DNA of 64,000 nucleotides, from positions 47,375-111,374 of the forward strand of contig CAYLWZ010000002.1 in the NCBI GenBank assembly GCA_964387825.1. Reading direction: 5' to 3'. This document shows positions 1,443 through 21,395 of this stretch, one piece after another. The notes under the pieces are model-generated. The model did no database searches and had not been told where the DNA came from. It saw nothing but the letters and a program-made list of their open reading frames with translations. Position numbers and translations under genes: made by a program. This DNA is from an uncultured Candidatus Saccharibacteria bacterium (GTDB taxonomy: Bacteria; Patescibacteriota; Minisyncoccia; Minisyncoccales; GWA2-38-27). Positions within the stretch are counted from its first letter, which is position 1, and every line of letters begins with the position of its first letter.

Positions 1443-1450
1443 ACCAATAA

Positions 1451-1646
1451 AGAATTACGAATTAAGAATTAAGAATTAAGAATACAATAATAAATAAATT
1501 CAATAACTAATGAGAAAATGTAAAACATAAAACGCAAAATAAAAATTAGGGACAAAAAATACTTTAAATTTTAAATTGTCGTTTTACGCTCTTCGCTTTA
1601 AATCTCCAGAATATTCATAATTCTTAATTCTTAATTCTTAATTCTT
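1451..1646. repeat. secY-rplO spacer: inverted arms of (gaattaa)n / (ttaattc)n around an A-rich centre
   Basis: read directly from the sequence. Confidence 0.7.
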
Positions 1647-2107
1647 TTTACTTCGCCTCCTGCTTTCTCAATCTTCTCTTTCGCCGTTCCTGACAATTCA
1701 CAGCCTTCAATAATTAACTTCTTTTTTATTGTCATTTTCCCTAAAATTTTCACTCTCGGCGTCCTTCCTTTTATTTTAGAAATTAATCCCCTTTCAAGCA
1801 AACTTTTAGGATTCACTTTCTCTCCTGATTTGAACTCCTCTTCTAATTTTTCCAATTTTATTATAACTTTTGATTTTTGATTTTTGCTTTCGTTTACGAG
1901 GAACTTATTCTTTTTTGACCTTTGTCTGTAGCCCCTTAATTTAGGATGCTTTTTTATCAATTCTCGAATAACCGGAGCAAATCTATGGCCAGCGCGCGAT
2001 TTTTGTCCCTTTAGTCCCTTTCCCGAATAAGTGCCTCTTTTACCGCCTCGTCCAACACGTTTTTTCTTTCCTAGTTTATGGACTGATTTTAATTGATGTA
2101 ATTGCAT
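1631..2107 (-). CDS. rplO: 50S ribosomal protein L15
   Basis: KKKRVGRGGKRGTYSGKG…GQKSRAG motif typical of uL15; operon position S5-L15-SecY. Confidence 0.85.
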   Translation of the reverse strand: MQLHQLKSVHKLGKKKRVGRGGKRGTYSGKGLKGQKSRAGHRFAPVIRELIKKHPKLRGYRQRSKKNKFLVNESKNQKSKVIIKLEKLEEEFKSGEKVNPKSLLERGLISKIKGRTPRVKILGKMTIKKKLIIEGCELSGTAKEKIEKAGGEVKRIKN

Positions 2108-2603
2108 GTTTAGATTTAAGATTTAAGTTAGATTTTAGCCTTTTTAAGGCTAAAATCGTTGCTTTAGCGTTGTTGATTTTATTACTGGTTTTTCCGATAA
2201 CTTTTGAAGAAATATTTTTAATCCCGGCTAAATCGCAAATAACCCGAACCGTTCCCCCTGATACCAATCCTCTTCCTTCTTTTTGAGGTCTTAGTAAAAT
2301 TTTAGCCGCTCCAAATTTTGCTTCAATTTGATAAGGAATCGTTCCCTGAACAATCATAACTTTAATTAGGTTTTTCTTAGCAACCTTTGTCGCTTTCTCA
2401 ATTGCTTGAGCAACATCTGCTCCTTTAGCTACTCCAAATCCAACTCTTCCTTTTTTATCTCCTATTACAACTCCCGCCCGAAAGCGAAAACGGCGTCCTC
2501 CAGCTGTCATTCGCATAACCCGAGACAAATCTAAAAGCTTTGAGTCAAATTCTTCTTTCTCCTTAAAATCTGTTCTTCTTGTTTGATTTCTTTTAATAAA
2601 CAT
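2076..2603 (-). CDS. rpsE: 30S ribosomal protein S5
   Basis: RVMRMTAGGRRFRF…GFGVAKGADVAQAIEKA…RPQKEGRG… matches uS5; start may be a few codons downstream (32-bp overlap with rplO). Confidence 0.85.
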   Translation of the reverse strand: MFIKRNQTRRTDFKEKEEFDSKLLDLSRVMRMTAGGRRFRFRAGVVIGDKKGRVGFGVAKGADVAQAIEKATKVAKKNLIKVMIVQGTIPYQIEAKFGAAKILLRPQKEGRGLVSGGTVRVICDLAGIKNISSKVIGKTSNKINNAKATILALKRLKSNLNLKSKHAITSIKISP

Positions 2604-2678
2604 AGAATCTTATAACCTGAAACTTGAAACTTATAACTTAGAACTTGGAACTTGGGTTACGGGTTACGGGTTACAAGA

Positions 2679-3128
2679 CTAGAACTCTAGTCCTCCTTCC
2701 CTCGCCCCATTTGCCAAGGATTTTATTCTTCCATGATATTTATACCCCCCTCTGTCAAAAACAACCTTTTTAATTTTATTTTTTAATGCTTTCTCGGCAA
2801 GTAATTTACCGACCCTATAGGCAATGGCAACTTTCCTTGAAACTTGTTTTTTCTCATCTTCTGCTTTTTTATCTTTCGGTTTTGAATTTTGAGTTTTGAT
2901 GGTTCGGCTTTGTTCACCATCAACCCCGAATTTGTCGAACGAGTTGAGCTTTCTAAGTTTAATATCGCTCAAACTTAAAATTATATTTCCTTTCTCGTCA
3001 TCAACAAATTGCGCATATATATGGTTTAATGATTTAAAAACAGAAAGGCGCGGAATCTTGGCTGTACCTTTTATTTTTGCTCTAATGCGCCGATGGCGCC
3101 TATATCTTTTTAATTGTTTTTCCAACAT
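2679..3128 (-). CDS. rplR: 50S ribosomal protein L18
   Basis: N-terminal RRHRRIRAKIKGTAKIPRLSVFKS…HIYAQ and C-terminal VFDRGGYKYHGRIKSLANGAREGGLEF are uL18 signatures; Lys/Glu-rich internal insertion. Confidence 0.8.
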   Translation of the reverse strand: MLEKQLKRYRRHRRIRAKIKGTAKIPRLSVFKSLNHIYAQFVDDEKGNIILSLSDIKLRKLNSFDKFGVDGEQSRTIKTQNSKPKDKKAEDEKKQVSRKVAIAYRVGKLLAEKALKNKIKKVVFDRGGYKYHGRIKSLANGAREGGLEF

Positions 3129-3235
3129 ATTATTAGATATTAGATATTGGATATTGGTCTATTTTTTACTCTATTTTCTATACAACTACTTTCTAATAAT
3201 TATACTTCCATTTTCTACTTTCTACTTTCCAATAA

Positions 3236-3784
3236 TTAAGCCCCTTCTGCCCCCATTACCTTTTTTCCTGTTTTTCTCCTGACATATTCTCCTATGTATC
3301 TTATTCCTTTTCCTTTATAAGGTTCGGGAGGACGTATCTTTCTTATTTTAGCGGCAACCTGACCAACTAACTCCTTATTAATACCTGAAACAGATATAAT
3401 GTTCTTTTCTACTGAAAATTTCACCCCCTCCATTTTTTTTATTAAAACCGGATGGGAAAATCCTACTTTTAAAATTAAGTTTTCTCCTTCTAAGGCAACT
3501 TTATAACCAATTCCCCGCAACTCTAATTTTTTTTCATACCCTTCTATCACTCCTCTTGTCATATTAAAAATAAGAGTCCGCTCCAAGCCCCAAAAAGCGT
3601 TGGTTTTCTTTGTTTCTTTTTGAGGAGAAATAAAAATCTTGCCGTTTTCTTGTTCGGCTTTAATTTCTTGTCGAATCTCTCTCTGGAGTTCTCCCTTCGG
3701 GCCTTTAACGATTACTTTTTGCCCTTCTATTTTTACTTCCACTCCCTCAGGTATTATAATTGGTTTTTTACCTATACGCGACAT
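3236..3784 (-). CDS. rplF: 50S ribosomal protein L6
   Basis: MSRIGKKPIIIPEGVEVKIEG…LKVGFSHPV… uL6 signature. Confidence 0.85.
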   Translation of the reverse strand: MSRIGKKPIIIPEGVEVKIEGQKVIVKGPKGELQREIRQEIKAEQENGKIFISPQKETKKTNAFWGLERTLIFNMTRGVIEGYEKKLELRGIGYKVALEGENLILKVGFSHPVLIKKMEGVKFSVEKNIISVSGINKELVGQVAAKIRKIRPPEPYKGKGIRYIGEYVRRKTGKKVMGAEGA

Positions 3785-3888
3785 AGCTCTTATAACTTAC
3801 GACTTACAACTTATAACTTATAACTTACAACTTATAACTTATAACTTACGACTTGGGTTACAGGTTACACGTTTTAAGTTTCAAGAAA

Positions 3889-4305
3889 TTACCATATTTC
3901 AAACAAAACTTCTCCTCCTAAACCCTGCTTCTCTGCTTTTTTGTCTGTCATTATACCTTTTGATGTTGAAATTATCGCTATTCCGCAACCTTTCTTCAGT
4001 TTTTTTATCTTTTTAGCGCTACTATAAATTCTCTGCCCGGGTTTTGAGATCCTTCTTAATTTAAGCTCAACGTCTTTTTTAATTATTCCAGGCTCCATTT
4101 CTTGCTCTCGCTCGTAATTTAGATTAAGCTCAATTATCTTCTTCTCTTTTCTCCTTTTCTTTTCTGTCTTTCCAATAAAATTCTCTTTTTCTAAAATTTT
4201 AGAAATTTCAAATTTTAATTTGGAAAAAGGAATAACCACTGTCTTCTTGGAAACAGCTCGAGCATTTCTTATTCTATTTAACATATCTGTAATTGGATCA
4301 ACCAT
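3889..4305 (-). CDS. rpsH: 30S ribosomal protein S8
   Basis: MVDPITDMLNRIRNA… and C-terminal …GGEVLFEIW are uS8 signatures; K/E-rich internal insertion. Confidence 0.85.
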   Translation of the reverse strand: MVDPITDMLNRIRNARAVSKKTVVIPFSKLKFEISKILEKENFIGKTEKKRRKEKKIIELNLNYEREQEMEPGIIKKDVELKLRRISKPGQRIYSSAKKIKKLKKGCGIAIISTSKGIMTDKKAEKQGLGGEVLFEIW

Positions 4306-4309
4306 AATA

Positions 4310-4400
4310 TTAGAATTAAGAATTATGAATTATGAATTATGAATTAATATCAACGAATTAAACCCAAGTTCTTAATTCTTAATTCTTAATTCTTAATTCT
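4310..4400. repeat. rpsH-rpsN spacer: (gaattaa/gaattat)n versus (ttaattc)n inverted arms
   Basis: read directly from the sequence. Confidence 0.7.
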
Positions 4401-4403
4401 ATT

Positions 4404-4589
4404 TTACCAGCTACTTTTTTTGACTCCAGGTATTTCTCCTTTATTTACCAACTCGCGAAAGCATATTCTGCATAAACCAAACTTTCTTATATATCCTCTT
4501 CTTCTGCCGCATCTAAAACAGCGCCGGACAATTCTCGTGCTAAATTTAGGTTTTCTCTTAGATTTTACAATTTGTGATTTTTTAGCCAC
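4404..4589 (-). CDS. rpsN: 30S ribosomal protein S14 type Z (zinc-binding)
   Basis: 61 aa, [19 protein letters not shown]…[20 protein letters not shown] four-Cys zinc motif; spc operon position. Confidence 0.85.
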
Positions 4590-4593
4590 AATT

Positions 4594-4727
4594 CCTTATA
4601 ACTTATAACTTATAACTTATAACTTGGAACTTGGAACTTGGATTAGGGTTTTAAGTTATAAGTTATAAGTTATAAGTTTTAGGTTATAAGTTTTAGGTTA
4701 TAAGTTTTAGGTTTCAAGTTTTAGGTT
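4594..4727. repeat. rpsN-rplE spacer: (ttataac)n, (ttggaac)n versus (aagttat / aagtttt)n inverted arms
   Basis: read directly from the sequence. Confidence 0.7.
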
Positions 4728-5282
4728 TCAAGATTTTATTGGTAGTCCTGATAATTTCAACAATTCAATCCCCTCTTGGCAGGTTTTGGCCGTAGTTACA
4801 ATCGTTATCTCAAATCCAAAAATTATTCTTGCATTTTCCGGCATAATCTCAGGGAAAGAGATGTGCTCTCTGACGGATAAAGTAAGATTTCCTTTTTTAT
4901 CAAATGATTTTGGGTCAATCCCCTGAAAATCACGAGACCTAGGAAGAGCAATATTAACCACCCTGTCTAAAAAATCATACATCTTCATTCCCCGTAAAGT
5001 AACAACCGCGCCAACAGGCATCCCTTTTCTTAATTTGAAAGATGATATTGACTTTTTTGCTTTAGTTAAAATCGGTTTCTGTCCGCAGATTAAAGCTAAA
5101 TCGTTTAGGATAGCGCTGGTTATCTTTTTTTGCTCATCAGAGGTCTTACCAGAAATTATTCTACCAAAACCAGTATTTATTACAACCTTCTCAAACTTAG
5201 GAACGGTCATAATGTTTTTATAACCGAATTTTTCTATCATTGCCGGCACAATCTTTTTTATATATTTTTCTTTTAGACGCAT
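4728..5282 (-). CDS. rplE: 50S ribosomal protein L5
   Basis: MRLKEKYIKKIVPAMIEKFGYKNIM…PKFEKVVINTG… uL5 signature. Confidence 0.85.
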   Translation of the reverse strand: MRLKEKYIKKIVPAMIEKFGYKNIMTVPKFEKVVINTGFGRIISGKTSDEQKKITSAILNDLALICGQKPILTKAKKSISSFKLRKGMPVGAVVTLRGMKMYDFLDRVVNIALPRSRDFQGIDPKSFDKKGNLTLSVREHISFPEIMPENARIIFGFEITIVTTAKTCQEGIELLKLSGLPIKS

Positions 5283-5359
5283 ACTTCAGATTTAAGATTA
5301 AAGAATTAAGATTAAAGAAAATTCACTTAAATCTGAAATCTTACAACTTAAATCTTATT

Positions 5360-5665
5360 TTATATCTCTTGTCCGCATTTTTTGCAAATACGATATTTTT
5401 TCTTTCCTTCCTTTTTATAACCTATGCGGGTTGGCTTCTCGCACTTCGGACAAATAAGTTTCACGTCAGAAACATCAAAAGACCCGGGTACTTCTACAAT
5501 CTGACCCTTTTCGCCAGATTTCTTCGGTTTAACATGTTTCTTCCTCAAATTAATTCCTTCAACCATAATCCTGTTTCTCTTAGGAAAAACTGTTATAACT
5601 TTGGCTTTTCTGCCTTTGTCTTTCCCGGAAATCACAAGAACCTGGTCGTCTTTTCTAATTTTCAT
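5360..5665 (-). CDS. rplX: 50S ribosomal protein L24 with C-terminal zinc-ribbon extension
   Basis: MKIRKDDQVLVISGKDKGRKAKVI KOW motif of uL24 plus C-terminal CPKC…CKKC. Confidence 0.8.
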   Translation of the reverse strand: MKIRKDDQVLVISGKDKGRKAKVITVFPKRNRIMVEGINLRKKHVKPKKSGEKGQIVEVPGSFDVSDVKLICPKCEKPTRIGYKKEGKKKYRICKKCGQEI

Positions 5666-5747
5666 TATATCGATGCTAATATACGAATTATACCAATAAA
5701 ACTAATAAATTATTCGTAAATTCGTAATGAATTCGCATATTAGTTGA

Positions 5748-6116
5748 TTACACTATGTCTTTGGCCAAATTAATTATTTTACTAAACCCTTTTTCCCTCA
5801 ACTCTCGCGCTATTGGTCCGAAAATTCTTCCCCCCTTCGGGTTTTTTCCTGACTCTAAAATTACTACCGCATTTTCGTCAAAACGAATATATGAACCGTC
5901 TTTCCTCCTGAAGGCCTTTTTTTGCCTAACTATCACTGCTTTAACCACATCATGTTTTTTTACCGGCCTCCGGGGTTCAGCAATTTTAACCGCTCCCACA
6001 ATAATATCGCCTAGAGCGGCGTATCTCCGGCGAGTGCCGCCTAAAACCCGGATACACTTGACTGTCCTTGCTCCGCTATTATCAGCGACTTTTAATAATG
6101 TTTCTGTTTGAATCAT
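5748..6116 (-). CDS. rplN: 50S ribosomal protein L14
   Basis: [17 protein letters not shown]…GDIIVGAVK… uL14 signature. Confidence 0.9.
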
Positions 6117-6121
6117 ATTAA

Positions 6122-6210
6122 AATAGAATTAAGAATTACGAATCAAGAATTAAGAATAAAATAAAAACTCAAAACTCATAATTCTTAATTCTTAATTCTT
6201 AATTCTTAAT
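6122..6210. repeat. rplN-rpsQ spacer: (gaattaa)n versus (ttaattc)n inverted arms
   Basis: read directly from the sequence. Confidence 0.7.
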
Positions 6211-6465
6211 TCAAAGTTTCTTTATCACTTTCCACTTCTTATCTTTACTCATCGGCCGGCTTTCTTCAATAACAACCCTGTCCCCAATTTTATACTCTCC
6301 TTCCTCGTCGTGGGCCTTATATTTCTTATGAACCTGATATCTTTTTTTATATTTAGGGTCTTCTTTTATTCGTTCCACCTCAACCACTACTGTTTTTTCC
6401 ATTTTATTAGATACTACAGTTCCTTTTAATTTTTTCTTTGGCATATGCCGCACAACATAGAACAT
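6211..6465 (-). CDS. rpsQ: 30S ribosomal protein S17
   Basis: [24 protein letters not shown]…[24 protein letters not shown] uS17 pattern. Confidence 0.85.
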
Positions 6466-6499
6466 AGAACATAGAAGATATTGTTCGATGTTTTATGTT

Positions 6500-6691
6500 T
6501 TATGTTTTATGATTTATGATTGTTAGTATTCTTGCTATATCTTTTTTAACCATACGAATCTCACGCACATTTTTTATTTTGCCCGAAGCTAAGTCAAAAC
6601 GAAACCGCCTCAACTTTTCTCTATTTCTCTCCAAGGTTTCTTTTAATTCTGTTCTCGGTTTTTGTCTTAATTCTGACGCTTTCATAGACAC
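6500..6691 (-). CDS. rpmC: 50S ribosomal protein L29
   Basis: 63 aa, MKASELRQK…EL…LERNREKLRRFRFD uL29 pattern; between S17 and L16. Confidence 0.8.
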   Translation of the reverse strand: MSMKASELRQKPRTELKETLERNREKLRRFRFDLASGKIKNVREIRMVKKDIARILTIINHKT

Positions 6692-6760
6692 AGATTAATA
6701 CGGATTTCAGCGGATTAATACTGATAAATTATCTGCATAAATCGGTTAAATCCGTATAAA

Positions 6761-7171
6761 TCAACGTTTTATAAATTTTGTTTTTATTGGTAATTTATCT
6801 GTCGCCATCTTAAATGCCTCTTTAGCTTTCTTTTCCGATATCCCTTCCAGCTCAAAAATAATTCGGCCCGGAGTAATTGGAAAAACATAATGGTCCACCG
6901 CCCCTTTTCCACCGCCCATTGGAACTTCCGTTCCTTTTTTAGTTACCGGTTTGTCTGGAAAAATTCTAATCCAAAGCTTACCTCCTTTTCTCAAATATCT
7001 AATTATAGTCCGCCTAGACGCCTCAATTTGACGCGATGTTATCCATTTTGTTCCAAAGGACTTAAGACCATAACTTCCAAAACAAAGTTCGCTTCCTCGA
7101 ACTCCAATGGTCTTTGAAGCTCTTTTTCTCCATTTCCGATGTTTAACTTTCTTTGGTATTAACATTGCCAT
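6761..7171 (-). CDS. rplP: 50S ribosomal protein L16
   Basis: MLIPKKVKHRKWRKR…GTKWITSRQIEA…RRT uL16 signature. Confidence 0.9.
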   Translation of the reverse strand: MAMLIPKKVKHRKWRKRASKTIGVRGSELCFGSYGLKSFGTKWITSRQIEASRRTIIRYLRKGGKLWIRIFPDKPVTKKGTEVPMGGGKGAVDHYVFPITPGRIIFELEGISEKKAKEAFKMATDKLPIKTKFIKR

Positions 7172-7310
7172 TTTTAAAAATTCCTAAATCCTAATTTCTA
7201 ATGTCAAACAAAATGTCAAATTATTAAATGTCCAATATCAAATTTTTCTTTTTTAGTCATTTGGCATTTAGCATTTAAATTTTTGTTAGAAATTAGACAT
7301 TAGGAATTAG

Positions 7311-8039
7311 TCATTCAAACTTCTCTCCCTTGTACATCCAAACTTTTATTCCAATTACTCCGTAACTGCAATGGGCTTCAGCTTTGGCATAATCTATATC
7401 AGCCCTGATAGTTTGAAGAGGAAGCCGGCCTTTCCTAAGCCATTCTCTTCTGGCGATTTCAACACCATTTAGCCGTCCGGCTACTTCTATTTTTACCCCT
7501 TTAATCTCTTTATTTGCCAAAACCTTGCTCATCGCTTGTTTTAACACTCTTCGGTGGTTAACTCTCTTCTCTATTTGTTGAGCAACCCACTGAGCGCAAA
7601 GACTAGCAGAAATCCAGGGCTTTCTAACTTCTCTTATTTCAATTTTTATTCCTTTCTTCTCAGAAATCATCTGGGCCAAAGACTGTTCTTTCTCTTTTTT
7701 ATTAGTTAAATCATTAGCGACAACAAGTTTTTCCTTTCCTCCCGTTATTTTAAATTTAAAAACTTTTTTTAACAATTCTCTCCTTAACTGTTCAACTCCT
7801 TCTCCTCCCCTCCCGATAATAATGCCTGGCCGATTGCTAAAAACAATAATATTTAACTTATTGGGAAATCTCTCAATTTCAACTTTTTCCACCCCGCTTT
7901 TTTTAAGCTTTCTATTTAAAAATTCTCTAATTCTAAAATCTTCCTCTAATTTTTCAGCAGCTTTTTTATAAAATCCTCTCGAACTCCAATCAGATATTTC
8001 TCTTGTCCTATATATTTTTGGATGAACTTTGTGAGACAT
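7311..8039 (-). CDS. rpsC: 30S ribosomal protein S3
   Basis: MSHKVHPKIYR…KH domain-like region…IGIKVW uS3 pattern. Confidence 0.85.
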   Translation of the reverse strand: MSHKVHPKIYRTREISDWSSRGFYKKAAEKLEEDFRIREFLNRKLKKSGVEKVEIERFPNKLNIIVFSNRPGIIIGRGGEGVEQLRRELLKKVFKFKITGGKEKLVVANDLTNKKEKEQSLAQMISEKKGIKIEIREVRKPWISASLCAQWVAQQIEKRVNHRRVLKQAMSKVLANKEIKGVKIEVAGRLNGVEIARREWLRKGRLPLQTIRADIDYAKAEAHCSYGVIGIKVWMYKGEKFE

Positions 8040-8155
8040 AACTTCTTGAAACTTGAAACTTGAAACTTGAAACTTGAGTTATAAGTTGTAAGTTATAAGT
8101 TTCTTTAATCTTTCAACTTTAATCTCTCAACTTTAATCTCTCAACTTTAATCTTT

Positions 8156-8755
8156 CTAGAACGCTTTTCGTCTAAATATCCTTTTTAATCCTCCTATATT
8201 TTTCGGTTTTGGTCCTTTTGGTTCTATCTCAGGGCGCGATTTCGGCTGTCTAATTTTTGTCCCGCCTTCAGCAAGGCCTTCTACAAGAAATTCCTTATTG
8301 CTTTTAATAACTTTTTTCTCTTTCTTGTCTTTTAATTTCTTGACAGGAGAAATTTCTTTTCTTGCCTTTTTTATGCGGGATACCCTCTCTTTTCCTCCAA
8401 TTGCCTTAGCTTCTTTTCCCGGTTTAGTTTCTTCCAAAACCAAAGTTATATGAGAAGTTCTCTTTTTAATTTGATTAACCATCCCTCTTGACCTAGGTCT
8501 CCATCTTTTATATTTCGGACCTTCATCTACGGTAATTCTGGAGATATATAAGTTGTCTGGATTAAGGTGAAAATTATTACGAGCATCGGCAACAGCTGTT
8601 TTTAAAAGTTTGGCTATTGGTCCAGCTGCTTTTTTAACAGTGAAATTCAAAATCCGTTCGGCATGCTCAACTTTATTCTTACGGATAAGGTCAGCCACAA
8701 GCCGGACTTTTCGAGGGGATATCCGTAAATATCTTAACTTAGAAACTACCGCCAT
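8156..8755 (-). CDS. rplV: 50S ribosomal protein L22 with ~90-aa Lys/Glu-rich C-terminal extension
   Basis: N-terminal 110 aa match uL22 (LRYLRISPRKVRLVADLIRKNKVEHAE…); remainder low-complexity basic tail. Confidence 0.8.
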   Translation of the reverse strand: MAVVSKLRYLRISPRKVRLVADLIRKNKVEHAERILNFTVKKAAGPIAKLLKTAVADARNNFHLNPDNLYISRITVDEGPKYKRWRPRSRGMVNQIKKRTSHITLVLEETKPGKEAKAIGGKERVSRIKKARKEISPVKKLKDKKEKKVIKSNKEFLVEGLAEGGTKIRQPKSRPEIEPKGPKPKNIGGLKRIFRRKAF

Positions 8756-8796
8756 GTTTTTGAGAATTGAAAATTAAGAATAAAAATTCGTAATTC

Positions 8797-9099
8797 TTAA
8801 TCCTGTTTTATTTCTTTTGATTTTACTTCTTGCTCCCGCTGCATTTTTCCCCCGTGTTTTCCAAATTTTGTAGTAGGGGCAAACTCTCCTAATTTATGGC
8901 CAACCATATCCTCTTTTATATTTACGGAAATATGTTCTTTACCATTATGGACGTTAAAGATAAAACCAACCATTTCCGGAACAATAGTGCAGGCGCGAGA
9001 CCAGGTCTTAATTATTTTTCTATCCTCCGGTTTCAAATCCCTGATCTTTTTTAATAATTTTTCATCTATATATGGACCTTTTTTGATGCTTCTAGACAT
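8797..9099 (-). CDS. rpsS: 30S ribosomal protein S19
   Basis: [19 protein letters not shown]…[14 protein letters not shown]…HNGK uS19 signature. Confidence 0.9.
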
Positions 9100-9299
9100 A
9101 AATTAAATTAATTTTGAATTTCTAATTTTTAATTTTGATTGAATTTTTAATTATTTAATGACTTAATTTTGAAGTAAGATTCTTTTTTTTTGTTTTTTTG
9201 TTTGTTTGTTTATTATTCAAAATTCTATTATTCATAATTGATTCAAAATTCAAAATAGAACAAGTTCCTCGCAAGCGAGAGCAAAATTCAAAATTTTTA

Positions 9300-10106
9300 T
9301 TATTTCTTTTTCTTAGATTTCCTCCTCTTGATAATATATTTATCGCTTCTCTTTTTTCTCCTTGTTTTCACTCCTAACGCAGGTTTCCCCCAGGGAGTTT
9401 TCGGATATTTTAAGCCAATTGACGACCTTCCTTCTCCTCCTCCATGAGGATGGTCAACAGGATTCATAGCCACGCCTCTAACGGACGGCCTGTGTCCCAT
9501 TAAACGATTCCTACCCGCTTTTCCAATAATTCTGTAACGCCATTCAGAATGTGAAACAGCCCCGACGGTCGCATAACAATCCCCAAAAACCATTCTTATT
9601 TCGCTGGACGGCATTTCTAAATTAACATATTTTCCTTCCTGTGCCAAAATTTTGGCGCTACTTCCCGCAGACCTGACTATTATCCCTCCTTCCCCTGATA
9701 TAAGCTCAATATTATAAACCATAGTTCCTACCGGAATATTTTTAATTTTCATTCTGTTTCCGGTTTTAATCTCAGCTTTCTCTGCCGAAATTATCTCGTC
9801 TCCTATTTTTAAGTCCTGACCGGCTAATCTATAACGTCTATCTCCGTCGCTATATTCTAAAAGAGCGATAAAGGCGGTGCGATAAGGATCGTATTCCAGA
9901 GCAATAACTTTAGCCGGGATGTCAATTTTTTTCTGATCAAAATCAACAATCCTGTATAATTTCTTACTCCCTCCTCCCCGATGACGGACAGTTATCCGGC
10001 CAGAATTATTCCTTCCCGCCCTTCTTTTAAAAGACAAAAGCAATCGTTTCTCGGGTTTTTTCTTAGTCAATATTTTTGTCGCTGATATTTTTTTTTTCTT
10101 CTTCAT
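9300..10106 (-). CDS. rplB: 50S ribosomal protein L2
   Basis: uL2 signature (…[16 protein letters not shown]…[29 protein letters not shown]); the track ORF extends to 10247, but the conserved protein starts at [11 protein letters not shown] (ATG at 10106). Confidence 0.85.
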
Positions 10107-10224
10107 AAAAACAATGATTTTTCCGCATCTATTTAGAACCGTACGGGCGGGCGACCCACGGGTCTCCCCTACGATTTTTTCAAATAAATATTGCCTATTT
10201 TCAGCGCGATTCGTATTTTGAAAA

Positions 10225-10275
10225 TTGGCTATATCAATCCCGCACATAAATTATGGGCGGGATTGATATAGCCAA
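10225..10275. promoter_or_regulatory. perfect 19-bp inverted repeat (ttggctatatcaatcccgc / gcgggattgatatagccaa) with 13-nt loop, between rplW and rplB
   Basis: read directly from the sequence; loop contains ccgcacataaattatg, which recurs at 58926-58941. Confidence 0.6.
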
Positions 10276-10283
10276 AATTGTTA

Positions 10284-10844
10284 TCATCTCGACAATAACT
10301 CTATCTTCTGCCCCTTTTTTACTTTTACTATCGCTTTTTTATACCCTTTCCTCCAGCCGATTTGCTTCCCTAATCTTCTTTTCTTTCTATGGACATTAAT
10401 AATTTTAACATCAACCGCATCAACTTCGTATATGTCTTTAATTGCTTTCTTAACTTCAATTTTATTGGCTCCGGGCCTGATTTTGAATACATACTTGTTT
10501 TTCTCGTTCAGGTCGGTTGCTTTTTCGCTAATATGAGGAGAACCTAAAACTCGGTAAGCCCTGTCAGAGATTTGTCTTTTTTGCGCTTTTCTTTTGCCTT
10601 CAGAATCTCTAACGGGGTAAACTATTTTTGAAACCTCTTTCTTCTTTTTGGTTCCCGCAACCCCGGTCTTTTTAATCTTCTCTGTCTCTTTTTCTATCTT
10701 TGGTTTAATTCCTTCAATCGGAGCAAAATATGGCTCTTTCGCAACTTCTCTTTCCTTTTTTTTCTCTATTATTTTCTTTCCCGGTTTTTTCTCTACTTTC
10801 TTTTCAACTTGTTTCCTTTTTTTAAAAATATTTAATAGACCCAT
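10284..10844 (-). CDS. rplW: 50S ribosomal protein L23 with ~90-aa Lys-rich N-terminal extension
   Basis: C-terminal ~95 aa match uL23 (…AYRVLGSPHISEKAT…IRPGANKIEVKKAI…); no internal Met, so the extension appears to be translated. Confidence 0.75.
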   Translation of the reverse strand: MGLLNIFKKRKQVEKKVEKKPGKKIIEKKKEREVAKEPYFAPIEGIKPKIEKETEKIKKTGVAGTKKKKEVSKIVYPVRDSEGKRKAQKRQISDRAYRVLGSPHISEKATDLNEKNKYVFKIRPGANKIEVKKAIKDIYEVDAVDVKIINVHRKKRRLGKQIGWRKGYKKAIVKVKKGQKIELLSR

Positions 10845-10849
10845 ATTCC

Positions 10850-10939
10850 TATAACCTGTAACTTGTAACTTGTAACTTGTAACTTGTAACTTGAGATTTA
10901 AGTTTTGAGTTTTGAGTTATGAGTTCTAAGTTGTAAGTT
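10850..10939. repeat. rplW-rplD spacer: (acttgta)4 versus (aagtt…)n inverted arms
   Basis: read directly from the sequence. Confidence 0.65.
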
Positions 10940-11569
10940 CTAAGATTTAAATGTTTCTTTAATCACCCCTATCGCCTCTTTCGGTATGATTAAATATTTA
11001 TAAGAAAGCGCGTCTAAAACGTTTAGGTCTTTCGCCTGGATTGTGGCAATTCTCGGAATGTTTCTAAGGGCTAAAATTGCATTTTTGTCTATTTCCGGCA
11101 AAGCAATTAACCCAGAACCTTTTTCTAAAAACAATTTATTCAATATTTTTTTTGCTAATTTCGTCTTTGCCTTTTCAAAACTCAAACTATCTATGACCAA
11201 AAGCAGATTATCTTTTGCCTTGGCTGATAAAACCATAAACAAGGCCTTTCTTTTCATTTTCTTGGCAATCTTTTTTTTAAAAACTCTTTCTGCTGTCGGA
11301 CCAAAAGTTACTCCCCCTCCTCTCCAAATAGGAGAACGGTTTGAACCTACCCTCGCTCTTCCGGTGCCTTTTTGCCTCCAGGGCTTTCTTCCTCCTCCTC
11401 TAACTTCGCTTCTGTCTTTCGTTTTAGCGATATTTCTCCTCTGATTCGCCCTTTGCGCCAAAACTACCTGATGAACTAAATCAAGATTCATTTTCACTTC
11501 AAATATCTCTTTCGGCAAATCTATCTTTCCGACCTCTTCTCTATTTTGATTATAAAGTATTGTTTTCAT
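10940..11569 (-). CDS. rplD: 50S ribosomal protein L4
   Basis: uL4 pattern (…VHQVVLAQRANQRRNIAKTKDRSEVRGGGRKPWRQKGTGRAR…); likely start is MKTILYNQ (11569); upstream codons come from a catgaaa tandem repeat. Confidence 0.8.
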   Translation of the reverse strand: MKTILYNQNREEVGKIDLPKEIFEVKMNLDLVHQVVLAQRANQRRNIAKTKDRSEVRGGGRKPWRQKGTGRARVGSNRSPIWRGGGVTFGPTAERVFKKKIAKKMKRKALFMVLSAKAKDNLLLVIDSLSFEKAKTKLAKKILNKLFLEKGSGLIALPEIDKNAILALRNIPRIATIQAKDLNVLDALSYKYLIIPKEAIGVIKETFKS

Positions 11570-11640
11570 GAAACATGAAACATGAAACATGAAACATTTT
11601 TTTAATTTAGGTTTCAAGTTTTACGTTCCAAGTTTTAAAA

Positions 11641-12255
11641 TCATCCTCTAATCTCTAATAGCGTTCCCCTTCTTCCGGGAATAGCCCCTTTTACTGCTAA
11701 TAAATTATTTTCCAGGTCAATTTTTACTATTTTTAAATTTTTCACCGTTACTCTTTCCGTTCCCATTCTGCCGGGCATCCTTCTGCCCTTAATCACTTTC
11801 TGGGGAAACATTGAGCCGATTGAGCCGATTGTTCTTTCCGTATGTTTCGTTCCATGGGTGGCTGTCTGGCCGTGAAATCCCCATCTTTTTACTCCTCCGG
11901 CAAATCCTTTTCCCTTAGAAATACCAGAAATTTTTACTTTCTCCCCTTTATCAAAAATTGAAACATCAATTTTATCTCCCATCTTCATTTTTTGTTCGCT
12001 GTTCGCTGTTCGCTGTTCGTTGACTCTAAACTCTCTTAAATGTTTGTAGGGCTTGTCCCTAAGCGGTTTTTTAATTTTATTTTTCTTATTTATCTCTTCA
12101 AAACCAACCTGAATCGCCTTATAACCGTCTTTTTCCTTCGTCTTAATTTGAACAACATAACAAGGGCCGGCTTCAACCAAAGTCACTGGAATAACATTCC
12201 CTTCTCCGTCAAATATCTGGCTCATTTCTATTTTTTTTCCAAGAATGAATTTCAC
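11641..12255 (-). CDS. rplC: 50S ribosomal protein L3
   Basis: MKFILGKKIEMSQIFDGEGNVIPVTLVEAGPC…GKGFAGGVKRWGFHGQ…THG uL3 signature. Confidence 0.9.
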   Translation of the reverse strand: MKFILGKKIEMSQIFDGEGNVIPVTLVEAGPCYVVQIKTKEKDGYKAIQVGFEEINKKNKIKKPLRDKPYKHLREFRVNEQRTANSEQKMKMGDKIDVSIFDKGEKVKISGISKGKGFAGGVKRWGFHGQTATHGTKHTERTIGSIGSMFPQKVIKGRRMPGRMGTERVTVKNLKIVKIDLENNLLAVKGAIPGRRGTLLEIRG

Positions 12256-12440
12256 CCCATTAGAAGTCTGTCCTTATATAGTCAGTAACTAATTTCAAAC
12301 AGACTTTTATTTTCCAACTATACTCCGTTATTGCTGAGCAGAAAAAATTTTAAAAATTTTTTTCTGCCAAAGACTTCTAACGGGGTTCATACAATACAAT
12401 CCGAATATTCCAAATTCTTATCTGAATACTCCAAACAATG

Positions 12441-12465
12441 AAAAACTGGGCATTGCCCAGTTTTT
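12441..12465. terminator. terminator/attenuator-like hairpin (aaaaactgggc att gcccagttttt) inside the rpsJ-rplC spacer
   Basis: perfect GC-containing stem flanked by A5/T5 on both sides; symmetric, so reads as a U-tailed hairpin on either strand. Confidence 0.5.
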
Positions 12466-12600
12466 CGAGGCAATTTAAATTATTGTATAATTTTTTAAAT
12501 TTTAATAAAATACATAGTTGATCTTATTCGTAGATCCGGATGTTATTCGTCCTAGACCCGTTCGTCCCGAACGGGACGGACTAGGGTTATTCGTCAATTT

Positions 12601-12942
12601 CTATATCTTTACTTCAATATCAACGCCCGCGGGCAAAGTTAAATTTATTAAGGCGTCAATTACATTCTGATTAGGATTTAAAATATCAATCAATCTTTTA
12701 TGAATTCTCATTTCAAACTGCTCCCGGCTGTCTTTATGGACAAAAGATGCTCGATTAACTGTATATTTGTGAATTTCGGTCGGTAAAGGAACTGGTCCCA
12801 CAATTTTAACGCCGTATCTTAAGGCCGTCTCAACAATCTGCCGAGCGCTATTATCAATCACTTTATTGTCATAAGCCTTCAGCTTTATCCTGAGCCTTTG
12901 CTTAAATTCAGTTTCTTCCTTAATTACTTTCTTGGTAGGCAT
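12601..12942 (-). CDS. rpsJ: 30S ribosomal protein S10
   Basis: …[25 protein letters not shown]…GPVPLPT… uS10 signature. Confidence 0.9.
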
Positions 12943-13041
12943 TATTATATTGCTAAGCTGTCCCGCTAAAAGCGGGGCTCGTTTATTATTGCATCGTTGT
13001 TTAATTCAATAATTTAACAATGCAATAATTCAGCAATTACT

Positions 13042-14232
13042 TTATATCTTGACTACTACTCCGGCGCCAACTGTTTTTCCGCCTTCCCTTATTGCAAATC
13101 TCTGTTTCTCTTCAAGAGCGACTGGAGACATTAACTTAACGTTTAAATTGACCGTATCGCCTGGCATAACCATTTCCGTCCCTTCTGGCAAAACTACATC
13201 TCCAGTTACATCAGTAGTCCTAATGTAAAATTGCGGTTTATATCCTTTAAAGAAAGGGGTATGGCGGCCGCCTTCTTCTTTGGTCAAAATATAAATCTCG
13301 CCCTCAAATTCGGTATGAGGCGTAACTGTTCCCGGTTTGGCCAAAACCTGGCCCCTTTCAACTTCTTCTTTTTTTAATCCTCTGAGAAGAATTCCAACAT
13401 TGTCTCCTGCTTTCCCTTCATCAAGTATTTTATTGAACATTTCTATACTCACTGCTACTGTTTTTTTTGTATCTTTTAAACCAATCAACTCTACCTCTTC
13501 ATTAGATTTAATTATTCCTCTTTCAATTCTTCCGGTAGCAACTGTCCCTCGTCCTTCAATAGAAAAAACATCTTCAATTGCCATTAAAAACGGCTTAGCT
13601 GTATCTCTAACAGGTTCTGGTATATACTCGTCTAACGCCTTAACCAGGTCTAAAATCGGCTTAGCTGCTTCGTCATCGCTTGATTTACATCCCAGCGCTT
13701 TTAGGGCAGAACCGCGAATTACCGGAATTTCATCCCCGGGATATTCATACTTTTTTAAAAGTTCTCGAATCTCTGATTCAACCAAATCAATAATTTCCGG
13801 GTCGTCAACCATATCGGTTTTATTAAGAAAAACAACAATTGAGGGAATACCAACCTGGCGGGCAAGCAAAACATGCTCTCTTGTCTGGGGCATAGGGCCG
13901 TCAGGAGCAGAAACCACCAAAATGGCGCCGTCCATCTGAGCGGCTCCGGTAATCATATTTTTAATATAATCGGCATGCCCGGGACAATCTATATGGGCGT
14001 AATGCTTTTTTTCCGATTCATACTCTAAATGAGAAACAGATATCGTAAGACCCCTGTCTCTTTCTTCTGGAGCAGCGTCAATCTGGTCAACGCTTTTTTC
14101 TTTACTGTTAAAACCCTTCAAACTTAAAACATGAAGGATAGCGGCTGTTAAGGTAGTTTTACCATGGTCAACATGGCCAATAGTACCAACATTTATATGA
14201 GGTTTTGTCCTTTCAAATTTTTCTTTAGCCAT
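13042..14232 (-). CDS. tuf: elongation factor Tu
   Basis: [32 protein letters not shown]…DCPGHADY… canonical EF-Tu. Confidence 0.95.
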
Positions 14233-14375
14233 AATTATTAAAAGAATTACGAATAATGAATTACGAATTAAGAATATTATATAATTCCTAATTCTTAATT
14301 CTAAATTCTAAATTCTAATTTATTTATTATTATCTTATTACTTTTTAAAAAAATGTCAATGTTTAGAGCGCGAAA

Positions 14376-16499
14376 TTATCGTCTTTTCCCTTCTATGATT
14401 TCCTGGGCTATATTACGAGGGACTTCTTCATAATAATCAAATTCCATTGTAAATGTTCCTCTTCCTTCTGTCAACGACCTTAATCCAGTGGCATAACCGA
14501 ACATTTCCGCCAAGGGAACGATAGCATTGATAATCTTTAAGTTTAATCTATCTTTCGTCTCCTCAATTCTGCCCCGTCTCGCCGATAAATCACCAATAGT
14601 ATCCCCAAAAAACTCTGAAGGCACAATAACTTCTAACTTCATAATCGGCTCCAATAAAACTGGTTTTGCTCTTTTTGCCGCCGCTTGAAAAGCGATAGAG
14701 CCGGCAATTTTAAAAGCGTTCTCGGAAGAATCAACCTCGTGAAAAGAGCCGTCATATAAAATCGCTTCTAAATCCATCATCGGGTAACCGGCTACAATTC
14801 CTTTATCTATCGCCTCTTTTATTCCTTTCCCCACTGCCGGAATAAATTCTTTGGGAATAACTCCTCCCTTAATTTTATCTATAAAATCAAATCCTTCCCC
14901 TCTGTCTTTTGGCTTAATCCTCAGCCAAACATGACCATACTGCCCGCGGCCTCCTGATTGTCTGATATACTTTCCTTCCGCTTCCGCTTCTTGTTTAATT
15001 GTTTCTTTGTAAGCGACCTGGGGTCTGCCAACCTTGGCGTTAACATTAAACTCACGCTTCATCCTATCCACAATAATCTCAAGATGCAACTCTCCCATAC
15101 CTGAAATAATCGTTTCGCTGGTTTCCAGATCTTCTTTTACTTTAAAGGTCGGGTCTTCTTCTGATAATTTCTTAAGAGCTAAACCCATTTTTTCTTGGTC
15201 GGCTTTTGACTCGGGTTCAATACGAATAGAAATAACCGGTTCTGGAAATATTATATTCTCCAAAACAATGTCCTGACCTTCTTCACAAAGGGTATCTCCG
15301 GTTTTAGTATTCTTTAAACCGACCGTGGCCGTAATATCTCCAGTAAAAACCTCTTTTACTTCTTCTCTTTCGGATGAATGCATTCTCAAAATTCGGCCGA
15401 CTCTTTCTTTTTTATTTGTTGTTGAATTCAAAACATAAGAACCTACTGCCAAAGAGCCTGAGTATACGCGGAAATAAGTTAAAGTCCCCACATATGGATC
15501 GGTCGCCACTTTGAAAGCAAGAGCGGAAAATTTCTCTGAATCGTCGGCTTTTCTTTCAATTTCCTCGCCTGTTTTAGGATACACCCCTTTTACTGGAGGC
15601 AAATCTTGAGGGCTAGGAAGATAATCACAAACGGCGTCAAGCAAAGGTTGAATTCCTTTATTTTTTAAGGCAGAACCGCAAAATACCGGAATTAATTTAT
15701 AACTCAACACAGATTTACGCAAAATACTTTTTAATTCTTCGTTGGAAATTTCCCTATTAGCCAAATATAGGCCTAAAATTTTCTCATCTTCCGCAACAAT
15801 TTTCTCAATCATTTTCTCCCGCCATTCTTTGGCTTCGGCTAATAAATTTTCAGGAATTTCCTCCTCTTTTACTACTTGGCCAAAATCGCCTTCAAATTTC
15901 AGCGCCTTCATCGTAAAAAGGTCAATTACTCCCTGATGGTTATCTTCTTCTCCTATCGGTATTTGAAGAGCAACGGCATTAGGAGAAAGTTTTTCTAAGA
16001 TAGAATCAAAACTCTTTTTAAAAGAAGCGCCTGTTCTGTCCAGTTTGTTTATAAAACAAATTCTGGGCACCTGATATTTGTCCGCCTGACGCCAGACGGT
16101 CTCTGATTGCGGCTCCACTCCGGCTACTCCGTCAAAAATAACCACTGCTCCGTCTAAAACCCTCAGAGACCTTTGAACTTCTGCAGTGAAATCAATATGT
16201 CCCGGGGTGTCAATAATATTTATTCTGTACTCGTTTTCTTTTCCCTGTTTTTCCGCGCCGCTATCTGCGTTTTTCCGCGTCTTCCAAAAACAGGTAGTAG
16301 CGGCTGAAGTAATAGTAATCCCTCTTTCCCTTTCCTGCTCCATCCAATCCATAATTGCCTGGCCATTATGGACTTCACCGATTTTATGGGAAATTCCGGT
16401 GTAAAACAAAACTCGCTCGGTTACAGTTGTTTTACCGGCGTCAATATGGGCAATAATTCCGATATCGCGAATTTTCTCAATTGGATAAATACGAGGCAT
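14376..16499 (-). CDS. fusA: elongation factor G
   Basis: [35 protein letters not shown]…DTPGHIDF… canonical EF-G, 707 aa. Confidence 0.95.
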
Positions 16500-16722
16500 A
16501 AATTTTCAATTAAAAATCCTAAGCGAGGCAATAATTCTTGAAAGTAAACCCAGTTAGAGATTCCGAGGACAAAGAAAAAATAAAGAAACAAGATATCTCT
16601 AACCGGGTAAACTTCGGAGGCAGTTTAGCATGGTTCCCGCTTTTAGCGGGATAAACTGCCGAGAAATTAGGCCCCAAAATCTCGCTGGGATCTTGAGGAT
16701 CGGTAATCCCTAACCGAGCGGC

Positions 16723-17193: not shown

Positions 17194-17255
17194 TTTTTCT
17201 TGAAACTTAAAACTTGGAACTTAAAACATAATCATTTAAAAAGTTTCAGGTTTTA

Positions 17256-17669: not shown

Positions 17670-17776
17670 AACAAAAGATTTAGGATTTAAGATTTAAGTT
17701 AAAAATTAAAAATAATAATAAAAAGATAGCGATAACCGCTATTTCATAATTTAGCAAAAAGTTTTCAAATTGTCAA

Positions 17777-18406: not shown

Positions 18407-18617
18407 ATTATTAGTGTAACAAAAAATTTTACAAAAGTAAAAATTTCTGATAAGATAACTTAAACGAATTTTCAATTATCAATTTTCAAATTTTCAATCA
18501 AATCCCAATTTTCAAATTTTCAAACTTTTTAAAAATCGTACTTTTCTATTGTTATTTAATAATTGAATCATTGAAAATTTATTGAAAATTGGTTATTGAA
18601 AATTGAAAATTAATTTT

Positions 18618-18918: not shown

Positions 18919-18924
18919 CTATCC

Positions 18925-21361: not shown

Positions 21362-21395
21362 TTCTTTTATTAACCGTTCGGTTTATTAAAAATAA

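Follow-up and report, generated by a model that had tools for sequence, protein, structure and literature searches.

The 64,000-nucleotide stretch analysed here (the window) is positions 47,375 to 111,374 of contig CAYLWZ010000002.1 (assembly GCA_964387825.1, deposited as an uncultured Candidatus Saccharibacteria bacterium). Its G+C content is 33-38%, all but one of its genes lie on the minus strand, and between positions 165 and 17669 it carries a cluster of translation genes in the transcription order S12, S7, fusA, tuf, S10, L3, L4, L23, L2, S19, L22, S3, L16, L29, S17, L14, L24, L5, S14, S8, L6, L18, S5, L15 and secY, with the L30 gene absent between S5 and L15. This report concerns the spacers between those genes, named below by their upstream and downstream genes (for example L22/S3), which are long and mostly contain arrays of short tandem repeats that can pair into hairpins.

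Start codons were fixed by comparison with orthologues before junctions were measured, and the same 22 genes were located in 164 loci from genome and metagenome collections; relative and outgroup loci are denoted by L and a three-digit number (e.g., L001), and two of them, L031 (JAUSHZ010000007.1) and L034 (JAQULB010000001.1), are related Parcubacteria metagenome-assembled genome (MAG) contigs. The closest matches to the window's S3 protein are Parcubacteria-group MAGs, labelled Nealsonbacteria or Paceibacterota or else mislabelled as Saccharibacteria, with at most 73% identity; no relative closer than this was found in the genome and metagenome scans, and exact-protein look-ups with L14 and S12 returned the same population only and with S14 no record at all.

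Between tuf and secY, junction lengths range from 41 to 345 nt (median 98) and reach 60 nt or more in 18 of the 21, in good agreement with an earlier note on this DNA that had put nearly every junction of the ribosomal-protein operon at 35-345 bp. The exception is S5/L15, where the genes overlap by 32 nt; we considered read-through of an array as the cause of this overlap and rejected it, because the same overlap is conserved in loci L004 and L088. The spacers are not a product of assembly, because independent assemblies reproduce them: five samples processed by two assembly pipelines (JGI 3300031643, 3300031351 and 3300031651; Logan SRR8556701, SRR8556706 and SRR9700624) yielded eight contigs that match the window without gaps at 99.9-100% identity over ~8.6 kb that includes 12 spacers and falls into two stretches, one running from L22 to L6 within the operon and one in the region of S12. 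A chimera or other artefact of assembling repeat-rich short reads, at which the tight packing of relatives (below) and the frequent ending of this population's contigs near repeats might have hinted, is thereby excluded. The earlier note had held that tight-packed relatives would point to an assembly-specific expansion; the relatives are indeed tightly packed, but the agreement of independent assemblies makes this a true lineage-specific expansion. As a practical matter, such spacers break short-read assemblies and mislead gene callers, and several open reading frames (ORFs) in the window had been wrongly extended into arrays by gene calling.

Heptamer arrays and hairpins between the genes

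Tandem Repeats Finder (TRF) detects period-7 arrays in 14 of the 19 long junctions and 47 non-redundant period-7 arrays in the whole window, nearly all of them in its first 18.7 kb, and none of this kind in dinucleotide shuffles. A separate periodicity scan over the 23 spacers in 1443-17776 gave period 7 in 14, period 8 in one and a weak period 6 in one, with periods 5 and 9 in none of the 23, and in the remaining 45 kb only one of 27 spacers showed period 7 (Fisher p = 1.8e-5). Enrichment in spacers is confined to period 7 and its multiples: the repeat unit is 7 bp, with 14- and 21-bp super-units, rather than the 5-8 bp claimed before, and 8- and 9-bp units are restricted to three sites, the L2/S19 spacer and spacers near 18.5 and 46.9 kb. 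The sole heptamer array outside the translation and oxidoreductase operons, at 62684-62749, lies immediately 5′ of an ATG (TTGTAAGTTATAAGTTGTAAGTTAT) and belongs to the AAGTTAY family that is also present in six ribosomal junctions; the gene downstream of it is an ATP-cone/Mrr-like nuclease.

All five units that the earlier note quoted (gaattaa, ttataac, aacttga, aacatag and acttgta) are present, as are tandem-repeat arms that pair with each other. Its statement that the unit differs between spacers holds in that there are several units, but these do not vary freely, and two families cover 11 junctions: AAGAATT/AATTCTT occurs in five (L15/secY, S14/S8, S17/L14, fusA/tuf and S19/L22) and AACTTAT/AAGTTAY in six (L5/S14, S8/L6, L18/S5, L4/L23, L22/S3 and S12/S7). 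Typical arrays have 4-5 units and are arranged as inverted pairs. They intrude into coding sequence at the 3′ ends of L15 and L29, reach the start codon of L4, and in one case lie inside L3; overall the window has 30 junction arrays of period 7, 14 or 21 in 2.3 kb of spacer versus five period-7 arrays in 11.7 kb of coding sequence. The individual spacers and related features are as follows (z, folding z-score against dinucleotide shuffles; MFE, minimum free energy):

1443-1630, minus strand: L15/secY spacer, 188 nt; 5′ arm AAGAATT x 4.9 (1613-1646, beginning within the last L15 codons), 3′ arm AATTCTT x 5.4 (1446-1483), both arms 36 nt long with 94% complementarity, and a second hairpin nested inside; MFE -37.9, z about -4.
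2604-2678, minus strand: L18/S5 spacer, 75 nt; 5′ GTAACCC x 3, 3′ AAGTTNN x 5-6 stopping 4 nt before the ATG; 60 periodic bases; z -2.5.
3129-3235, minus strand: L6/L18 spacer, 107 nt; GTAGAAA x 2.6 and TCTAATA x 3.6, the two units non-complementary; weak fold, z -2.0.
3785-3888, minus strand: S8/L6 spacer, 104 nt; 3′ AAGTTRT, 9.4 units (3789-3854), with a short and degenerate 5′ arm; z -3.8.
4306-4403, minus strand: S14/S8 spacer, the model case, 98 nt; AAGAATT x 4.6 (100% match) facing AATTCWT x 5.1, with the foot 2 nt off the stop and 5 nt off the start; z -7.8.
4590-4727, minus strand: L5/S14 spacer, 138 nt; 5′ array of 12.9 units (AACTTAT/AACCTAA), 3′ AAGTTCC x 3.1 and AAGTTAT x 4.4; at least 8 pairing registers; z -7.7.
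5283-5359, minus strand: L24/L5 spacer, 77 nt; hairpin with imperfect 7-mer arms (AGATTTA and TAAATCT types); z -3.1.
5666-5747, minus strand: L14/L24 spacer, 82 nt; palindromic element without tandem repeats, whose 3′ half is ~93% identical to three copies in L002 (in its L29/S17, L14/L24 and L24/L5 spacers).
6117-6210, minus strand: S17/L14 spacer, 94 nt; AAGAATT x 4.9 (100% match) facing AATTCTT x 4.7; the strongest fold, z -9.9.
6445-6518, minus strand: L29/S17 spacer; 5′ AAAACAT x 4.4 beginning within the L29 coding sequence, 3′ CTATGTT x 3.9; translation of S17 probably begins at the ATG at 6444.
6686-6760, minus strand: L16/L29 spacer, 75 nt; hairpin without repeats (ATACGGATTT...AAATCCGTAT); z -5.5.
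7172-7310, minus strand: S3/L16 spacer, 139 nt; nested, outer CTAATTY/RAATTAG and inner AAATGCY/GACATTT; z -5.8.
8040-8155, minus strand: L22/S3 spacer, 116 nt; 14-mer GAGATTAAAGTT.. x 3.6, AACTTAT x 3.6 and CAAGTTT x 4.7; hairpin not significant, z -1.0.
8756-8796, minus strand: S19/L22 spacer, 41 nt; small hairpin GAATTAC/ATTCTTAATT.
9100-9299, minus strand: L2/S19 spacer, 200 nt; AT-rich 7-, 8- and 25-nt repeats and an A-run; weak fold, z -1.3.
10107-10283, minus strand: L23/L2 spacer, 177 nt; near-perfect palindrome at 10225-10275 with 25-nt arms, GC-rich hairpins, no tandem repeats; z -5.8.
10845-10939, minus strand: L4/L23 spacer, 95 nt; degenerate 5′ arm AACTYAN facing AAGTTAC x 6.0 (97% match).
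11570-11640, minus strand: L3/L4 spacer, 71 nt; 3′ TGTTTCA x 4.4 reaching into the L4 start codon; z -4.5.
11993-12019, minus strand: array CGAACAG x 3.9 within the L3 coding sequence, in the variable loop, encoding NEQRTANSEQ.
12256-12600, minus strand: S10/L3 spacer, 345 nt; GC-rich hairpins, no heptamers; MFE -99 kcal/mol, z -6.3.
12440-12466, minus strand: terminator-like hairpin within the S10/L3 spacer, GAAAAACTGGGCAATGCCCAGTTTTTC followed by a T-rich tail; not a repeat hairpin.
14233-14375, minus strand: fusA/tuf spacer, 143 nt; promoter-like TTGACA-16-TAAGAT (14359-14332), then a TAGAATT/AATTCGT heptamer hairpin (14241-14325) that would probably fall in the tuf 5′ untranslated region (UTR).
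17194-17255, minus strand: S12/S7 spacer, 62 nt; AAGTTYY array 5′ of S7; hairpin not significant, z -0.8.
18462-18616, minus strand: hairpin whose arms consist of 7/8-nt repeats (AATTTTCA / TGAAAATT), lying upstream of the M50 peptidase-S12 gene group; z -2.8.
46898-47068, minus strand: spacer between the two 2-oxoacid:ferredoxin oxidoreductase subunit genes, 171 nt; nested hairpin, its outer arms made of 9-mers and its middle arms of 7-mers, around a perfect inner stem; z -7.5.

The inverted repeats reported earlier at 10225-10275 and 5666-5747 are thus confirmed, and so is the recurrence of the architecture outside the operon, at 18462-18616 and 46898-47068.

The inverted arms are 29-45 nt long and 80-97% complementary, and they often pair in several registers 7 nt apart, up to eight of them. 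Folding each spacer, a check that the earlier note had asked for, predicts stable structure: z is below -3 in 15 of the 23 spacers in 1443-17776 (down to -9.9) and in 8 of the 27 outside that region. All 18 long junctions of the window fold as a single top-level domain that spans 63-99% of the spacer, and at the foot of the hairpin the first paired base lies a median of 2 nt past the stop codon and the last paired base a median of 7 nt before the start. Hairpins without tandem repeats, at L14/L24, L16/L29, L23/L2, tuf/S10 and S10/L3, are all strong. Rfam searches of the window, L031 and L034 with gathering and E-value thresholds gave nothing relevant, the only match in the window being a tRNA-Pro; sub-threshold matches to miRNA precursors were set aside as spurious, as they merely reflect a long AT-rich hairpin. 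A promoter and terminator scan gave counts close to those expected from shuffles; two sites alone stood out, the one after S10 and the promoter-like site of tuf. The hairpin at 12440-12466 is the only good terminator candidate in the operon, and S10 may be transcribed with tuf and apart from L3; the S10/L3 junction is likewise long in relatives (120-330 nt).

Expansion of junctions in this and other lineages

More than 100 Parcubacteria operons have a median junction of 1-10 nt. Medians of 84-166 nt were found only in the window and in loci L025, L031, L034, L103 and L012, a scattered set whose S3 proteins are 52-62% identical to that of the window; where S3 identity is 60-73%, relatives have tight junctions or other units. 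L025, L103 and L012 contain the same kind of hairpin with other or partly shared units, and their junctions and those of L031 and L034 show the same one-domain folding and foot placement as the window. In L031 and L034, by contrast, copies of a single element of ~190 nt with three hairpins fill at least 10 ribosomal-protein junctions per genome, the junctions differing between the two:

L031 6286-17005 and L034 5060-16733, always in gene orientation: ~190-nt element beginning with atgacgctccaagagcg or gtaatccgttagcg and ending with ttctaac or tactaac that abuts the ATG.

In L027, whose S3 is 92.7% identical to that of L031, the junctions are tight (1-16 nt) and already end in attactaaa directly before the ATG. 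This element, which matches no Rfam family and does not occur in the window, looks recently active and junction-targeting. Junctions have thus expanded repeatedly, in a lineage-specific manner and in several forms.

That the inserted spacer DNA arose at the DNA level is largely shown by the following observations, which back the earlier note's suggestion of a slippage or lineage-specific origin. The 116-nt L22/S3 spacer aligns to the 35-nt junction of L001 through a core identical at 24 of 25 positions, with three extra copies of the 14-mer on one side and additional heptamers on the other, which indicates local, in-place tandem amplification. Periods of 7, 14 or 21 account for 30 of 37 junction arrays in the window and for 59 of 66 in outgroups beyond the Candidate Phyla Radiation (CPR), namely Acidobacteria, Nitrospirota and Firmicutes; period 7 is also the commonest in junction arrays of the other CPR loci, and in coding-sequence arrays periods that are multiples of 3 dominate. 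Array lengths have their mode at 28-35 nt and drop sharply above 36 nt in the window, in CPR and in outgroups alike. The variable loop of L3 contains heptamer arrays of 3.9-4.7 units, with four different units, in four lineages that have expanded junctions:

Window 11993-12019: L3-loop array.
L025 5848-5878: L3-loop array.
L034 5923-5955: L3-loop array.
L031 6818-6848: L3-loop array.

In S14/S8, where AATTCAT x 3 faces AAGAATT, unit variants have spread along one arm and are not mirrored in the other. The equal folding of sense and antisense strands (below) also counts as support for an origin at the DNA level. The sharing of units between lineages (AAGAATT, AAACTTG and AATATCC in 4-6 loci each) was examined as evidence of mobility and discarded, being about what chance predicts for AT-rich units across ~120 loci.

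The behaviour of heptameric long simple sequence repeats (LSSR), which many bacteria show, is usually attributed to replication slippage. A bacterial preference for heptamers was described by Mrazek et al. (2007), as summarised in PMC4679880, and G-quadruplex formation has been proposed for the four-unit preference of the Xanthomonas and Nostoc repeats (PMC4692102). The four-unit preference extends to the AT-rich units studied here, so the G-quadruplex explanation cannot be general; a recombination threshold on repeat length is one possibility for the stop at 4-5 units.

Arrays and folding are associated well beyond this window. Within 200 nt of period-7 arrays, inverted partners outnumber direct partners 14 to 0 in the window, 30 to 2 in CPR and 26 to 6 in outgroups, and an inverted partner accompanies 25-38% of junction arrays versus one of 87 coding-sequence arrays. 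Among 379 unselected junctions of 40-300 nt from 102 other Parcubacteria loci the median z is -2.85, with 47% below -3; the corresponding values for 180 junctions from 28 outgroup loci, which mostly use Shine-Dalgarno (SD) sites, are -0.86 and 9%, and 26% of the long outgroup junctions carry a period-7 array. Within CPR this tendency to fold back is present with or without heptamers. SD-like motifs precede a fraction of 0-0.3 of the genes in CPR operons (below 0.2 in most loci) versus 0.3-0.86 in outgroups, and in the window GGAG, GAGG or AGGA occurs at -18 to -4 in only 8 of 82 ORFs. In the SD-poor Parcubacteria, ribosomal-protein junctions are generally either a few bases or long fold-backs, a candidate rule at the level of the clade.

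Heptamer-armed hairpins were also found in other phyla, where the units are GC-rich (e.g., GCGGCTA/TAGCCGC and ACAGTGA/TCACTGT):

L059, L062, L065, L067 and L076: S8/L6 spacer, Vicinamibacterales.
L068 6671-6852: S14/S8 spacer, Oscillospiraceae.
L075 3245-3350: L23/L2 spacer, Peptococcaceae.

At the S8/L6 junction of Vicinamibacterales a hairpin of 100-128 nt is kept as its unit changes (GCGGCTA, GGGAACA or GGGACC types), and in some of these genomes just one arm or an unrelated spacer is left.

Weighing the explanations

We hold, with moderate confidence, that the spacers are lineage-specific expansions of junctions that were once a few bases long, filtered for the ability to fold on themselves. 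The expansion itself would proceed mostly by tandem duplication of ~7 bp, plus a few dispersed palindromic elements. As the comparative statistics suggest, a long unstructured AU-rich gap would be harmful in the polycistronic mRNA of an SD-poor organism whose relatives depend on stop and start codons that overlap or abut, since it would uncouple the translation of neighbouring cistrons and expose RNA to nucleases; in E. coli and Haloferax, a gap of ~20 nt already leaves hardly any coupling by reinitiation (PMC10666635). We infer that only self-folding insertions are tolerated: the surviving expansions would be those with complementary halves, in which the insert loops out and leaves stop and start at the foot of the hairpin. 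Because tandem-repeat arms pair in many registers, such a hairpin would survive gain or loss of a unit in one arm, and the arms would thereby be free to grow to about 4-5 units (~32 nt). More speculatively, the hairpin might mask the start region until the upstream ribosome melts its foot, so that coupling would be kept across a 100-nt gap.

Hairpin-unmasking coupling is known from MS2 and some E. coli ribosomal-protein operons, and cauliflower mosaic virus shunts ribosomes across a hairpin foot. As in those systems, the upstream ORF here ends at the hairpin foot and the downstream start lies on its other side, and the modelled geometry (medians of 2 nt after the stop and 7 nt before the start) is compatible with translational coupling; those systems differ in being single conserved structures, whereas the hairpins predicted here are built of repeats at every junction. 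We consider it doubtful that Patescibacteria lacking SD sites use hairpins to set stop and start side by side and so couple the genes of essential operons across gaps of 100-200 nt. If they do, this would be a bacterial counterpart of ribosome shunting or hairpin-gated reinitiation; with arms that pair in any register, the hairpins could lengthen through heptamer slippage, and there would be a class of self-expanding intercistronic hairpins that crosses phyla, in Acidobacteria, Firmicutes and Nitrospirota as well.

Several observations weigh against the fold-filtered expansion that we favour. Two hairpins lie in probable 5′ UTRs, one before tuf and one before the M50 peptidase gene, with no ribosome arriving from upstream to open them, so coupling cannot be their only context. 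The L22/S3, L2/S19 and S12/S7 spacers carry arrays yet fold no better than shuffles. The sense strand folds better in only 14 of 24 spacers (Wilcoxon p = 0.81) and shows no excess of G-U pairs, as would be expected of a palindrome formed purely at the DNA level, and at L5/S14, L4/L23, L18/S5 and L29/S17 the antisense strand folds clearly better. The number of exterior nucleotides is 10.5 in real spacers versus 17.5 in shuffles, only a moderate gap. No indels or copy-number variation were seen over 12 spacers in the eight matching contigs, which are consensus sequences only, and slippage would accordingly not be fast; the repeats likewise do not behave as phase-variable contingency repeats in those consensus sequences. 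The model does not account for the expansion of the translation operons and the oxidoreductase pair but not of a 14-gene hydrogenase operon in the same window, nor for the preference for 7 bp itself. Finally, the filter against unstructured gaps, the growth of arms in many registers and the masking of starts derive from statistics on sequences, and are proposed as such.

The hydrogenase operon in question, at 51095-58895, resembles a combined Mrp-antiporter/group-4 [NiFe]-hydrogenase, with junctions of -28 to +35 nt and genes for complex I 49-kDa, 30-kDa, 20-kDa and NuoH-like subunits and for MnhB/E/G, and it is an unusual energy-conserving module for a Parcubacterium.

It is possible, if somewhat unlikely, that the spacers are a by-product of heptamer slippage combined with intrastrand template switching or small palindromic mobile elements, and are thus neutral or selfish DNA with no role as RNA. 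The equal folding of both strands, the intrusion of arrays into coding sequence, the L14/L24 palindrome with its three dispersed copies in L002, the recent filling of different junctions by the ~190-nt element in L031 and L034 while L027 remained tight, and the turnover of units between species within one genus would all be expected of such DNA. It does not explain, however, why z is below -3 in 47% of long junctions in the SD-poor Parcubacteria versus 9% in outgroups, though both carry heptamer arrays, why hairpin feet lie 2 nt past the stop and 7 nt short of the start, or why the overlapping hydrogenase operon is avoided.

The arrays here are head-to-tail 7-bp copies beyond chance that prefer non-coding DNA between co-oriented genes, and in this they behave as heptameric LSSR, such as the GGGNATC repeats of Xanthomonas and Nostoc (PMC4692102) and the TAACTGA repeats of Beggiatoaceae (PMC4679880), which also prefer period 7 and ~4 units, often lie just before starts, and are present in ribosomal-protein operons where SD sites are rare (PMC4679880). 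They differ in that heptameric LSSR have been described as direct repeats of one unit, MacGregor having counted 169 direct sets and one inverted (PMC4679880). Repetitive extragenic palindromes and their composites (REP, BIME and REPIN) and MITEs (miniature inverted-repeat transposable elements, e.g., Correia elements) resemble the present spacers in being intergenic, co-transcribed, hairpin-forming and sometimes inside operons, and the L14/L24 element has dispersed copies in L002. REP-type elements are imperfect palindromes of 20-40 bp that share a GTAG/CGTC-type head, exist in many near-identical copies and are associated with a RAYT transposase; MITEs have terminal inverted repeats and target-site duplications. 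Unlike those families, the heptamer hairpins have no conserved head motif, no full-length consensus beyond the unit and no detectable target-site duplication, and L22/S3 was amplified in place; no transposase, Y1 type included, was found in Pfam scans of 50 window ORFs. Foldback (FB) transposons of Drosophila have inverted arms of short tandem repeats, but these are eukaryotic, kilobase-sized elements of demonstrated mobility, and their resemblance to the hairpins here is one of form only.

We think it unlikely that the hairpins are selected RNA elements, either sites where RNase III or another nuclease divides the polycistronic transcript into units or stem-loops that protect the flanking mRNA against exonucleases, or both. 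RNase processing was among the roles that the earlier note had suggested. Stems of 30-40 bp, as are present here, are long enough for RNase III, and hairpins are found in the operons with the highest expression as well as in what is probably the 5′ UTR of tuf. The short tandemly repeated repetitive (STRR) elements of cyanobacteria offer the closest precedent for the architecture: 7-bp repeats that can form a hairpin lie between hupS and hupL in Nostoc, Anabaena and Lyngbya, for which transcript stabilisation or translation coupling has been proposed, and both REP and STRR hairpins have been put forward as transcript stabilisers (PMC2670836). Like hupS-hupL, the spacers here place a hairpin of 7-bp tandem units between genes that, judging from gene order, are co-transcribed. 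STRR sequences differ in comprising few defined units in ~100 copies across large cyanobacterial genomes, whereas the present units are varied and AT-rich, occur in a Parcubacterium with a small genome and saturate one operon cluster (18 of 21 junctions of at least 60 nt, 14 of 19 long ones with arrays), and they are therefore not STRR in the strict sense. The selected-element account is further weakened because the hairpins are not conserved at orthologous junctions, which in relatives are mostly 1-10 nt, because they have neither a sense-strand G-U signature nor an Rfam match, and because more than 100 relatives without spacers evidently need no cleavage at each of them.

It is improbable that the arrays primarily bind a protein of which each subunit covers 7 nt (e.g., ribosomal protein S1, a cold-shock protein or a HutP-like ring) and which regulates downstream translation, the hairpin being secondary. 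The 3′ arrays end 1-12 nt before starts in an SD-poor genome, two unit families recur in 11 junctions, and MacGregor proposed a similar role for TAACTGA repeats upstream of starts, including those in SD-rare ribosomal-protein operons (PMC4679880). Against this, there are 105 canonical units among 311 arrays and units vary within and between genomes, the complementary unit fills the 5′ arm, arrays also lie inside coding sequence, and lineages have units in common about as often as AT-rich composition predicts.

Hairpins can pause RNA polymerase, and the earlier note had suggested attenuation, but it is very improbable that the spacers are attenuators or terminators that tune gene dosage along the operon: in spite of the one true terminator-like hairpin after S10 (12440-12466), the heptamer stems are AT-rich and have no U-tract, no heptamer-armed hairpin is among the 22 terminator-like sites found (16.3 expected), and eighteen such elements in series would silence essential distal genes such as secY.

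Heptamer bias, an intergenic position between co-oriented genes, arrays of about four units and occurrence in SD-poor ribosomal-protein operons had all been described (PMC4679880, PMC4692102), and the present spacers are a genuine, if extreme, instance of repeats that cyanobacteria and other bacteria were already known to carry. Our literature search found no description of heptamer hairpins in Patescibacteria or of near-saturation of an S10-spc-str cluster, none of systematic pairing of arrays into stop-to-start hairpins, none of a clade-wide association of long junctions with fold-back in an SD-poor group, and none of the same architecture in operons of Acidobacteria, Firmicutes or Nitrospirota. 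The results extend heptamer-repeat hairpins from cyanobacteria to the CPR, to the most conserved bacterial operon and to at least three further phyla. The alternative of a few bases or a fold-back bears on how internal cistrons are initiated without SD sites, and the arrays bear on what makes 7 bp the favoured length of tandem units in the non-coding DNA of bacteria.

Other features of the window

The gene for tRNA-Pro(GGG) at 18848-18919, the sole confidently identified plus-strand gene, lies in a 748-nt gap beside the 18462-18616 hairpin. About 785 nt at 21210-21994 are strongly structured (z -7.8 and -6.1) around a 61-amino-acid ORF (21451-21636), with no Pfam or Rfam match; this region has a long-range stem gggattcaaaccagaa...ttctggtttgaatccc and shares the motif cctagtccgtcccg with the S10/L3 spacer.

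A 36-nt GC-rich palindrome (CCCGCCTGCA...TGCGGGCAGG) occurs as two perfect tandem pairs, at 36186-36258 and 36516-36588, each 72 nt long and in frame, which flank the LigD 3′-phosphoesterase domain within the ORF at 36144-36737. The same palindrome is also nested in the L14/L24 spacer of L002, and a related copy is present in the L6/L18 spacer of L034; it may be a REP-like mobile palindrome in an AT-rich genome.

Two of the ribosomal proteins are longer than their typical bacterial counterparts: L23 (10284-10844, 186 amino acids) has a Lys/Glu-rich N-terminal extension of ~90 amino acids, and L22 (8156-8755, 199 amino acids) has a basic C-terminal extension of ~85 amino acids.

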